This document shows positions 43,878 through 46,094 of a DNA stretch of 64,000 bases, in pieces (the stretch's first letter is position 1; every line of letters starts with the position of its first letter). The DNA is from Octopus sinensis (taxonomy: Eukaryota). The stretch lies in NCBI RefSeq assembly GCF_006345805.1, contig NC_043004.1:99572001-99636000 (forward strand). Reading direction: 5' to 3'. A model generated the notes under the pieces. The model did not search any database. It saw only the letters and a list, made by a program, of their open reading frames with translations, and was not told where the DNA came from. The translations under genes and the position numbers were made by a program.

Positions 43878-43932
<55 letters not shown>

Positions 43933-44011
43933 ATTCGAGACAAAACCACTATTTTAAAATCAACAAGGAAAGACTTAATACATAAAATTTTAATATAAAT
44001 TAAATAAACCG

Positions 44012-44055
44012 CCACTACAATTGTTTCATGTCTGCTACCGACATTCTTCAGGTGA
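44012..44055 (-). ncRNA. Minimal type I hammerhead ribozyme (family B, left arm)
   Basis: Minus strand reads tcac-CTGAAGA-ATGTC ggtagca GACAT-GAAAC-AATT-GTA-gtgg. Canonical core with a palindromic loop III. Confidence 0.85.
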
Positions 44056-44122
44056 ATTTCGATCTTCTAATCAGTATCAAATTATGACTTCATAATTTGA
44101 TACTGATTAGAAGATCGAAAAT

Positions 44123-44165
44123 CCACCTGAAGAATGTCGGTAGCAGACATGAAACATTGTAGTGG
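44123..44165 (+). ncRNA. Minimal type I hammerhead ribozyme (family B, right arm)
   Basis: ccac-CTGAAGA-ATGTC ggtagca GACAT-GAAAC-ATT-GTA-gtgg. Predicted cleavage after 44161. Confidence 0.85.
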
Positions 44166-44615
44166 CGGTTTATTTAATTTATATTAAAATTTTATGTATT
44201 GATTAAGTCTTTCCTTGTTTGATTTTAAAATAGTGGTTTTGTCTCGAATTATATTATATAATACTTTACTATAAAATTGGATTTAACCCTAACTCTGATT
44301 TTTCCCTGTAAATTTGGATTCATTCCCTAATATTTATTATTATTTATATATATATATATATATATATATCAATTAAGGACAACTTCTTAATAAGGAAAAC
44401 TTAACAAGAAATTATCAGGTAGATAGCGTGAAAGACCTCATAAGAGAAAAAATTTCGAAAATAATTCTTTCTTATTGAACATATTAATTTATATATAGAG
44501 GGCATTATTATACATACATGCCACACGCTAAGAGGGACAAAATTAGTCATTTCTACCAAAAATTTTACTAATCCCACCGAATGCAATTTTTCAAAGTAAG
44601 ACATTTAAAAATATA

Positions 44616-44662
44616 GACTTGTATCACCTGTGATTTCATACCTCTGTATTCATCAGCAAGCC
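44616..44662 (-). ncRNA. Type I hammerhead ribozyme (family C, left arm)
   Basis: Exact reverse complement of 45008-45054. Confidence 0.85.
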
Positions 44663-45007
44663 TGGACGTATCATAAATAAACGACCGTACCTCGTCTAAG
44701 CCGAGCAGCTAACTGATCAACATCAACGAAGCACATGGGTGAGTTTACATATATTACATCCGGTAAATGGCAGACTTTTACGAATTGCATTTCTTGTTAA
44801 TTTCTTGTTAAGTTTTCCTTATTAAGAAGTTGTCCTTAATTGCTAAATTTTTATTCCGAAAAAACTTTTCTTCCCCGAAATGCAATTCGTAAAAGTCTGC
44901 CATTTACCGGATGTAATATATGTAAACTCACCCATGTGCTTCGTTGATGTTGATCAGTTAGCTGCTCGGCTTAGACGAGGTACGGTCGTTTATTTATGAT
45001 ACGTCCA

Positions 45008-45054
45008 GGCTTGCTGATGAATACAGAGGTATGAAATCACAGGTGATACAAGTC
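45008..45054 (+). ncRNA. Type I hammerhead ribozyme (family C, right arm)
   Basis: ggcttg-CTGATGA-ATAC agag GTAT-GAA-ATCAC ag GTGAT-A-caagtc. All three stems and a canonical core are present. AUA triplet, predicted cleavage after 45048. Confidence 0.88.
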
Positions 45055-45301
45055 TATATTTTTAAATGTCTTACTTTGAAAAATTGCATTCGGTGGGATT
45101 AGTAAAATTTTTGGTAGAAATGACTAATTTTGTCCCTCTTAGCGTGTGGCATGTATGTATAATAATGCCCTCTATATATAAATTAATATGTTCAATAAGA
45201 AAGAATTATTTTCGAAATTTTTTCTCTTATGAGGTCTTTCACGCTATCTACCTGATAATTTCTTGTTAAGTTTTCCTTATTAAGAAGTTGTCCTTAATTG
45301 C

Positions 45302-45379
<78 letters not shown>

Positions 45380-45386
45380 AGCGACT

Positions 45387-45680
45387 GGAGGCGCAATGTC
45401 CAAGTGGTTAGAGCAGCGGACTCGCGGTCGGAAGATCGCAGTTTAGATTCCCGAGTATTGTGTGTGTTTATTGGGCCAAAACGCCTAAAAGCTCCACGGT
45501 GCTCCGGCAGGGGGTGGTGGCGACCCGTATTGTACTCTTTCGCCACAACTCTTCCTGTTTCTTAAGCAACGCTGCGATGGATCGGCGTCCAGTCCAGCTG
45601 GAGGAACACATACGCCAAAGAAACCGGGAAACAGGTCCCATGAGCCTGGCTAGGCTTAAAAAAGGGCGACGTTTATCGTT
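45387..45680 (+). mobile_element. tRNA-derived SINE, family 3
   Basis: Head ggaggcgcaatgtccaagtggttagagcagcgg. 13-bp TSD tatataagcgact at 45374-45386 and 45681-45693. Confidence 0.88.
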
Positions 45681-46094
45681 TATATAAGCGACTGACGCTG
45701 AAAGGAAACCGAATAGAAATAACACTGGTGACAGAGATGATGAAAATTATGATAATCATGAGAGGAAGGAGGAAATCGTGTATCATTCTAGCGATGATAA
45801 GCAGGAACAGCATCTTATGTAAATACGTTCACACATGTTGAAGTTGGTTTTATTTTTGTTATAATTATATTAGTAGTGGTAAAATTAGTAATCGTTGTGG
45901 TGGTGGTGGCGGGGTTGTTGTCTTTGTCTGCTGCTAAAGTAATACCGACTTCATTGTTTGCCAGACAAGTAATTAAAATGTCATTATCAGTTTAGAGACG
46001 CTGCAATGTGTTGCATTGTTCTATCAACCATAGTCTATTTGTGTGAGCGCGTGCATAGTCGTACAAACACGTATTCACGTATACGCGTATTTTT

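Follow-up and report, generated by a model that had tools for sequence, protein, structure and literature searches.

A young head-to-head insertion of a retrozyme unit with a predicted hammerhead and Penelope-type ends in Octopus sinensis

Animal non-LTR retrozymes are non-coding tandem units of low GC content with one type I hammerhead each (PMC7229834; bioRxiv 10.64898/2026.07.22.740005; here and below, comparisons refer to the parts of the cited papers considered in this work). They are strongly self-paired, range from monomers to multimers, and co-occur with Penelope-like elements. That Penelope-like elements move them, with circles as the template, is proposed but not demonstrated in those parts of the two papers, and local amplification has been suggested for the arrays (bioRxiv 10.64898/2026.07.22.740005). 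Penelope-like elements, in turn, can carry an inverted 5'-truncated copy and a tail on one end (PMC8557442; PMC3846280), and PMC11167929 describes initiation at two internal sites, each strand being first cut and then extended.

The element considered here lies in a 64,000-nucleotide stretch of Octopus sinensis DNA (the window), and its unit resembles the animal retrozymes in all of the above features. It is slightly larger than the 170-400 nt retrozymes of Cervera and de la Pena 2020 (PMC7229834) and has a size covered by the 51-972 bp range of Li, Clavereau and Pollet 2026 (bioRxiv 10.64898/2026.07.22.740005). Our main reading, to which we give a probability of about 75%, is that the element arose by recent insertion of a non-coding tandem unit that has a high copy number and a predicted hammerhead, and that a Penelope-like reverse transcriptase (RT)-endonuclease likely inserted this unit in trans into (TA)n.

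The insertion consists of two arms joined head to head, with (TA)n adjoining both outer ends (Table 1). The 51-nt direct repeat at an offset of 458 nt that the first-pass annotation had reported is exact (44798-44848 = 45256-45306), and the inverted arm is the perfect reverse complement of 44877-45300. Its 3' end points outward into (TA)n and stops 6 nt short of the main-arm end. The 11-nt duplication claimed for the junction is likewise present, the 11-mer at 44790-44800 being repeated at 44801-44811. The hammerhead motif lies in the middle of the unit, as had been noted, and the window copy contains one per arm. The unit has a GC content of 33%, and the longest stop-to-stop frame wholly within the element is 67 aa, in agreement with the earlier statement that there is no credible ORF.

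Table 1. Features of the window copy (positions in the window)
Feature	Position	Strand	Remarks
Main arm	44798..45306	+	one 458-nt unit + 51 nt; 3' end = site B, 5' end variable
Inverted arm	44370..44793	-	unit positions 80-503; 424/424 identical
Head-to-head junction	44790..44811	+	4-nt microhomology 44790-44793 + 11-nt tandem duplication; read from sequence
Type I hammerhead motif	45008..45054	+	predicted cut after 45048 (unit position 251)
Second hammerhead copy	44616-44662	-	within inverted arm; core on minus strand at 44656
Predicted long stem	44871..45098	+	44871-44906 with 45063-45098; encloses hammerhead, keeps both cut sides together
Site A	45174..45182	+	short TA run after hairpin; putative reverse-transcription start; unused as end in window copy
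Site B	45300..45306	+	fixed 3' end, ~124 nt beyond site A; putative reverse-transcription start
Left (TA)n target tract	44345..44369	.	common to end of adjoining Penelope-type element
Right (TA)n target tract	45305..45379	.	

The lack of any difference between the arms (0/424) bounds their divergence at <0.7% and supports the recent insertion proposed in the first-pass annotation. With the figure of 0.09 distance per 25 My that PMC13282606 quotes, the insertion would be less than ~1 My old, an estimate made less secure by the possibility of polishing or gene conversion. Between the window copy and its nearest counterparts there are 4/424 differences, and the median over other loci is 20/363. 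Arms that are 100% identical could also point to a chimeric read or an assembly artefact, and short-read polishing might erase differences between arms. However, the flanks of the window copy are not mirrored, and the head-to-head layout, the fixed ends and arm differences of 0-9 recur on many chromosome-sized contigs. The inversion is therefore taken as real, and the probability of an artefact as negligible.

The hammerhead motif is composed of a 6 bp stem I, the core CUGAUGA, a 4 bp stem II, GAAA, a 4 bp stem III and the triplet AUA. In an alignment of 21 units, its stems are paired in 98.6% of 294 cells. Compensatory changes are found in stems I and II, with 2/14 pairs altered on both sides (12 cells; 0/500 shuffles), the 12 cells tracing back to a small number of events passed on within subfamilies. 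Variation among the units is seen at core position 7 and in the loops. A search of Rfam returned no hammerhead, either at the gathering score or at E<=5, and only hairpin-type miRNA models below the cut-off. Folded in isolation, the motif favors a blocking fold at -10.2 kcal/mol over the active fold at -5.2 kcal/mol, a gap of 5 kcal/mol. The call of a predicted hammerhead ribozyme is based on the motif and its covariation. Judged from the sequences, the predicted hammerhead is under selection in the family, and the unit length is kept.

The circular consensus fold of the unit contains the hammerhead. For the circular fold of the unit, z = -5.7 on the hammerhead strand, with 67% paired, and z = -2.4 on the opposite strand (40 shuffles). 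The topology of the long stem in Table 1 is predicted alike in a sister family with a 494-nt unit. For the other helices of the unit, 96.7% of cells hold and 3/101 pairs are altered on both sides, figures that lend weak support because the structure was derived from one of the tested sequences. When the whole predicted fold is projected onto the sister family, 31/74 changed pairs stay canonical, where the null is 29 (p = 0.35), while among the 43 base pairs predicted in both families 5 are altered on both sides and none is altered on a single side. Since the whole-fold projection does not exceed the null, real covariation support is confined to the hammerhead and a few helices.

Searched as an exact pattern, the 3' half of the hammerhead is found 2,008 times in the 2.72 Gb genome, and the reversed-pattern control 0 times. 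Among the first 100 matches listed, many lie one unit apart and switch from the minus to the plus strand, as in head-to-head arrays, so that the tandem arrays for which a genome search had been suggested were indeed found. The family occurs in (TA)n as monomers, arrays and head-to-head pairs, with units of 458-480 nt. When the genome was searched with the main arm, 2,297 candidates came up, of which the best 39 were scored; the family loci are mostly best matches to the queries, with 39-40 scored of 1,124-2,673 candidates per search. Sequencing runs labelled as four other organisms contain 30-56% of the sampled words of the unit, and the family may be common to related species.

The 3' ends of the arms are fixed at two internal sites of the unit, 134 nt (A) and ~258 nt (B) past the predicted cut. 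In 46 loci, 76/81 arms end at one of these, 45 at B (unit 38-66) and 31 at A (360-400); the remaining 5 end elsewhere, and one of them, seen at greater length, ends at B. This mapping considers arms of at least 40 nt and leaves out overlapping loci, the near-identical duplicates L014, L017, L023, L027-L029 and repeats from later searches. The 5' ends are scattered over the unit, with none at unit positions 234-258. Arm lengths span <100 nt to 4.6 kb, up to ~10 units per arm, and the flanks are mostly (TA)n, a few ends adjoining (GA)n, (CT)n or unique sequence. Two parts of the first-pass annotation have to be revised on these grounds. Instead of a permutation that varies from copy to copy, the 3' ends lie at the two fixed sites; and the 51-nt redundancy, which had been read as slightly more than one round of copying, marks the stop point of the cDNA of the window copy. 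Because the 5' ends vary, the overlap is incidental and a property of that copy alone.

Short duplications are present at or just before sites A and B in L026, L131, L158, L018 and L054, and look as if reverse transcription had restarted after a few dozen bases. One of this kind, ~23 nt in length, occurs in many units of the main subfamily.

The pairing of the ends is the most informative on how the two arms arise. In 58 loci with 60 insertions (L057 contains two near-identical ones and is counted twice), 37 insertions are two-armed. Of these, 33 are A+B, 2 are B+B (the window copy and L058 only), none is A+A, and 2 have one odd end, an excess of A+B with p = 2e-8 against an expectation of 0.5 and p = 1e-4 against 0.67. 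The 23 single-armed insertions end at B (12), at A (10) or elsewhere (1). A hammerhead-centred query, which carries no bias to B, gave 5 A+B and 5 single-A insertions in nine loci.

The first-pass annotation had explained the inverted arm by a strand switch, with a monomer circle copied slightly over once and the cDNA then folding back. For the window copy this fits well, as the junction has a microhomology of 4 nt, both arms end at B, and the shorter arm lies inside the longer one without a single difference. In the family, one arm is contained in the other in 26/33 A+B insertions, which is also what a fold-back would give. In the other 7/33, however, neither arm is contained in the other, so that one arm is not a fold-back copy of its partner. 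The fold-back is also contradicted by L002, where the inverted arm has alleles in common with the 3'-most unit and not with the adjacent one. It predicts neither the A+B rule nor single arms that end at A (10/23), and the wide variation in arm length speaks against it as well. As a model for the whole family, we thus consider it improbable. Arms of the same insertion have 62 differences in 7,576 positions (40 pairs, leaving out L051, L052, L053 and L057), and we infer that they are primed at two ends from the same or near-identical RNA. The window copy, a rare and atypical B+B case, is explained equally well by the fold-back of one cDNA.

In the mechanism that we propose, a Penelope-like enzyme would nick both strands of (TA)n, each nick would prime cDNA synthesis at either of the internal sites A and B, and microhomology would then join the growing cDNAs at their 3' ends. 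The distance between A and B (~124 nt) argues against this proposal, as it far exceeds the published 30-40-nt tail. A more specific version, in which an enzyme dimer primes both nicked TA strands from two start sites on one circular retrozyme RNA and multi-unit head-to-head arrays are born in one step, is put forward tentatively, with odds that we place well below even.

The template can be narrowed down from the arms that run through the predicted cut, since it must have been joined there, either as a circle or as an uncleaved multimer, and not a cleaved linear monomer. Such reverse transcription through the cut site, which the first-pass annotation had expected from a circle or a tandem precursor, is seen in 59/81 arms crossing unit position 251, a share inflated by the loci being mostly picked as long matches. 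We lean slightly toward a contribution of a ligated circle, monomer or multimer, as template; uncleaved linear tandem RNA alone falls just on the other side of even. An account in which Penelope-driven insertion has only the uncleaved linear transcript of a genomic tandem array as its template, any circles being dead ends, is a serious competitor, although we would not bet on it.

The multi-unit insertions bear on this point in both directions. Nine were compared, among which only L266 and L267 were picked regardless of similarity. Structured unit differences are present in 6/9, in the form of alternating unit types in L053, shared substitutions in L051 and L002, and the ~23-nt duplication in some units only in L054, L159 and L023. 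These do not stem from one homogeneous circle, unless template switching or later conversion took place, and they favor the linear template. So do the hammerhead core changes in most L053 units and, in the in vitro work of PMC11167929, the findings that unprocessed RNA is the main substrate and that ribozyme mutants are still inserted. On the other hand, internal substitutions common to several units are lacking in 3/9 (L052, L267 and the 7-unit L266), the predicted hammerhead appears selected at a constant unit length, and mussel and coral retrozymes produce abundant circles (PMC7229834). Furthermore, copying of linear arrays would only shorten them, so that long arms would need a route of regrowth.

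The L053 array alternates units of 458 and 485 nt with different substitutions; a dimer circle was considered as its source and set aside because both alternating unit types carry core changes. Differences within tandem pairs recur in at least 2 other loci in 12/66 cases, versus 11/62 for opposite-arm pairs, which does not discriminate. The 2-kb gaps between hammerhead matches hold more units in L266 and an unrelated 1.7-kb insert in L267, and no Penelope-like ORF was found in either. None of the sequencing runs that contain sampled words of the unit is recorded as RNA; fourteen guessed to be RNA contain 16-42% of these words. Contigs assembled from three guessed-RNA runs and one unlabelled run cover parts of it; strand, ends and circles are not readable from them.

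A GIY-YIG profile search of the genome identified intact RT + GIY-YIG ORFs of 775-781 aa, whose families end in (TA)n. Further Penelope-like sequences comprise a third, older family and 218 matches to a Hydra-type motif, and several of the Penelope-like families in the genome have two 3' ends and terminate in (TA)n. From their motifs, families among these are provisionally labelled Neptune-like and Nematis-like. A young family at L087:674-4374, L090 and L089 has a 781-aa RT + GIY-YIG ORF, overlapped in L087 and L090 by an upstream frame of 479 aa; a scan of its 3' region found no canonical hammerhead core. In the Hydra-like family (L247-L250, L265), the 3' hammerhead core is often CCGAAGA instead of CTGAAGA, and the 3' end lies in (TA)n at two or three different positions.

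No convincing sequence in common was found between the unit and the sampled GIY-YIG, third-family or Hydra-type elements. Local alignment of the 3' part of the unit with five Penelope-like 3' ends gave z values of -1.0 to 3.9, the best being a gappy AT-rich match that falls to 3.0 over the whole 3' region and to 1.6 for the sister unit. Apart from matches that are short and weak, the unit is absent from 25 GIY-YIG loci, 12 long ORF loci, 30 third-family loci and 20 longer Hydra-like stretches.

We have also considered whether the unit is the pseudo-LTR of a longer coding Penelope-like element, the copies being its 5'-truncated remains, a possibility that the first-pass annotation had raised against its own reading. 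The ends and the target do resemble a pseudo-LTR with a tail, and retrozymes have been proposed to derive from pseudo-LTRs (bioRxiv 10.64898/2026.07.22.740005). However, no RT/GIY-YIG is fused to the unit in 58 loci of the family, 29 of the sister family or 2 others, and what lies upstream of the unit is more unit, an inverted arm or flank. The translated RT/GIY-YIG matches present in 8 loci fall outside the element, and the one of them that was followed up, a decayed Penelope-like ORF beside L054, is a separate insertion. In all sampled loci, the unit is thus not the terminal repeat of a coding element, and we regard this explanation as very unlikely. An ORF-linked ancestor could be the origin of the unit without being its present vehicle.

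Several groups of Penelope-like elements can be compared with the octopus unit. Like the canonical EN+ elements (PMC8557442, PMC3846280, PMC11167929, PMC4209133), it has partial tandems, an inverted 5'-truncated copy, a tail on one end, an AT or (TA)n target and start sites downstream of the hammerhead; unlike them, it has no ORF, its tail is ~124 nt rather than 30-40, and the whole unit has the size of a long pseudo-LTR. With the Hydra-clade elements (PMC8557442) it has in common the (TA)n target and, by eye, a hammerhead with a longer stem III and a 1-2-nt loop, although its stem III motif is absent from the part of the PMC8557442 supplement considered. The Hydra-like family of the octopus genome has two 3' ends, and its 3' end compared with the unit gives a z of 0.8, which is not significant. 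The non-autonomous Chlamys elements, e.g., MRC1 (PMC8557442), are similarly non-coding, form pseudo-LTRs and occur as multicopy head-to-tail insertions. They are algal, and have 3' sequence in common with autonomous partners (PMC8557442), whereas no convincing partner of this kind was found among the five 3' ends compared here.

Taken against the retrozyme definition, the family has arrays, a type I hammerhead motif whose core is conserved and whose stems pair, no coding capacity, GC below 45-50% and a highly self-paired monomer. As in non-autonomous Penelope-like elements, there are fixed 3' ends, an optional tail, 5' truncation, partial tandems, an inverted 5' copy and a microsatellite or AT-rich target; the RT + GIY-YIG ORF of the autonomous elements was not found within the unit in the sampled loci. 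On every feature testable here, the window unit is an animal non-LTR retrozyme, i.e., a non-autonomous Penelope-like element. The retrozyme-like character assigned to it in the first-pass annotation is thereby borne out.

The sister family mentioned above was found beside L008 (unit at L195:6892-7385), with 2,673 candidates and 590 motif matches. Its unit is identical to the window unit at 297/503 aligned columns; stem III is retained, stem II is longer, the predicted topology is similar (fold z of -3.2), and the two ends are as in the main family. In 28 of its loci, a sample biased to copies with B, 18 insertions are two-armed, with 17 A+B, 0 like-with-like and 1 odd. L247:3480-3795 probably represents a third, more distant sister family with a hammerhead-like core, its 3' part having a z of 8.0 versus the sister unit and 3.2 versus the window unit.

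Directly left of the window copy lies a second palindromic, Penelope-type non-coding element (43928-44345; 1,272 candidates). It has a minimal hammerhead core at 44127 (+) and 44051 (-) and two 3' ends, at about 44250 and 44340. In 20/20 loci its match stops within ~10 nt of one 5' point, ~35 nt before the hammerhead, which suggests a defined short element and not random truncation. To the right of the TA tract, 45385-45700 is a dispersed repeat whose start also flanks L002. We take it to resemble a tRNA-derived SINE; ARAGORN found no tRNA in it.

The retrozyme class is already known, as are the inverted arm and the one-end tail as Penelope traits. What is new is the family itself, its tail of 124 nt and, counted on whole arrays of a retrozyme, the pairing of A with B. 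The anatomy of the insertion resolved here (two fixed 3' ends, head-to-head arms, A+B pairing, TA target) is not described in the sections of the retrozyme papers considered. A literature search, outside of which lay most subscription journals and the repeat databases, returned nothing on the family of the window unit or on cephalopod retrozymes; the family may already have a catalogue entry, as a Penelope repeat or one without a name.

The family thus presents Penelope-type ends on whole arrays, with thousands of fairly young copies, two related families and an A+B rule that can be counted. If the model of a dimer acting on a circle is true, it would provide direct genomic evidence for retrozyme circles as a transposition intermediate in animals, and the near-strict pairing of A with B would reveal the way in which Penelope-like elements build inverted ends. 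As the RNA is small, its start sites are defined and intact candidate enzymes are at hand, the question of circle versus tandem template becomes testable in vitro.
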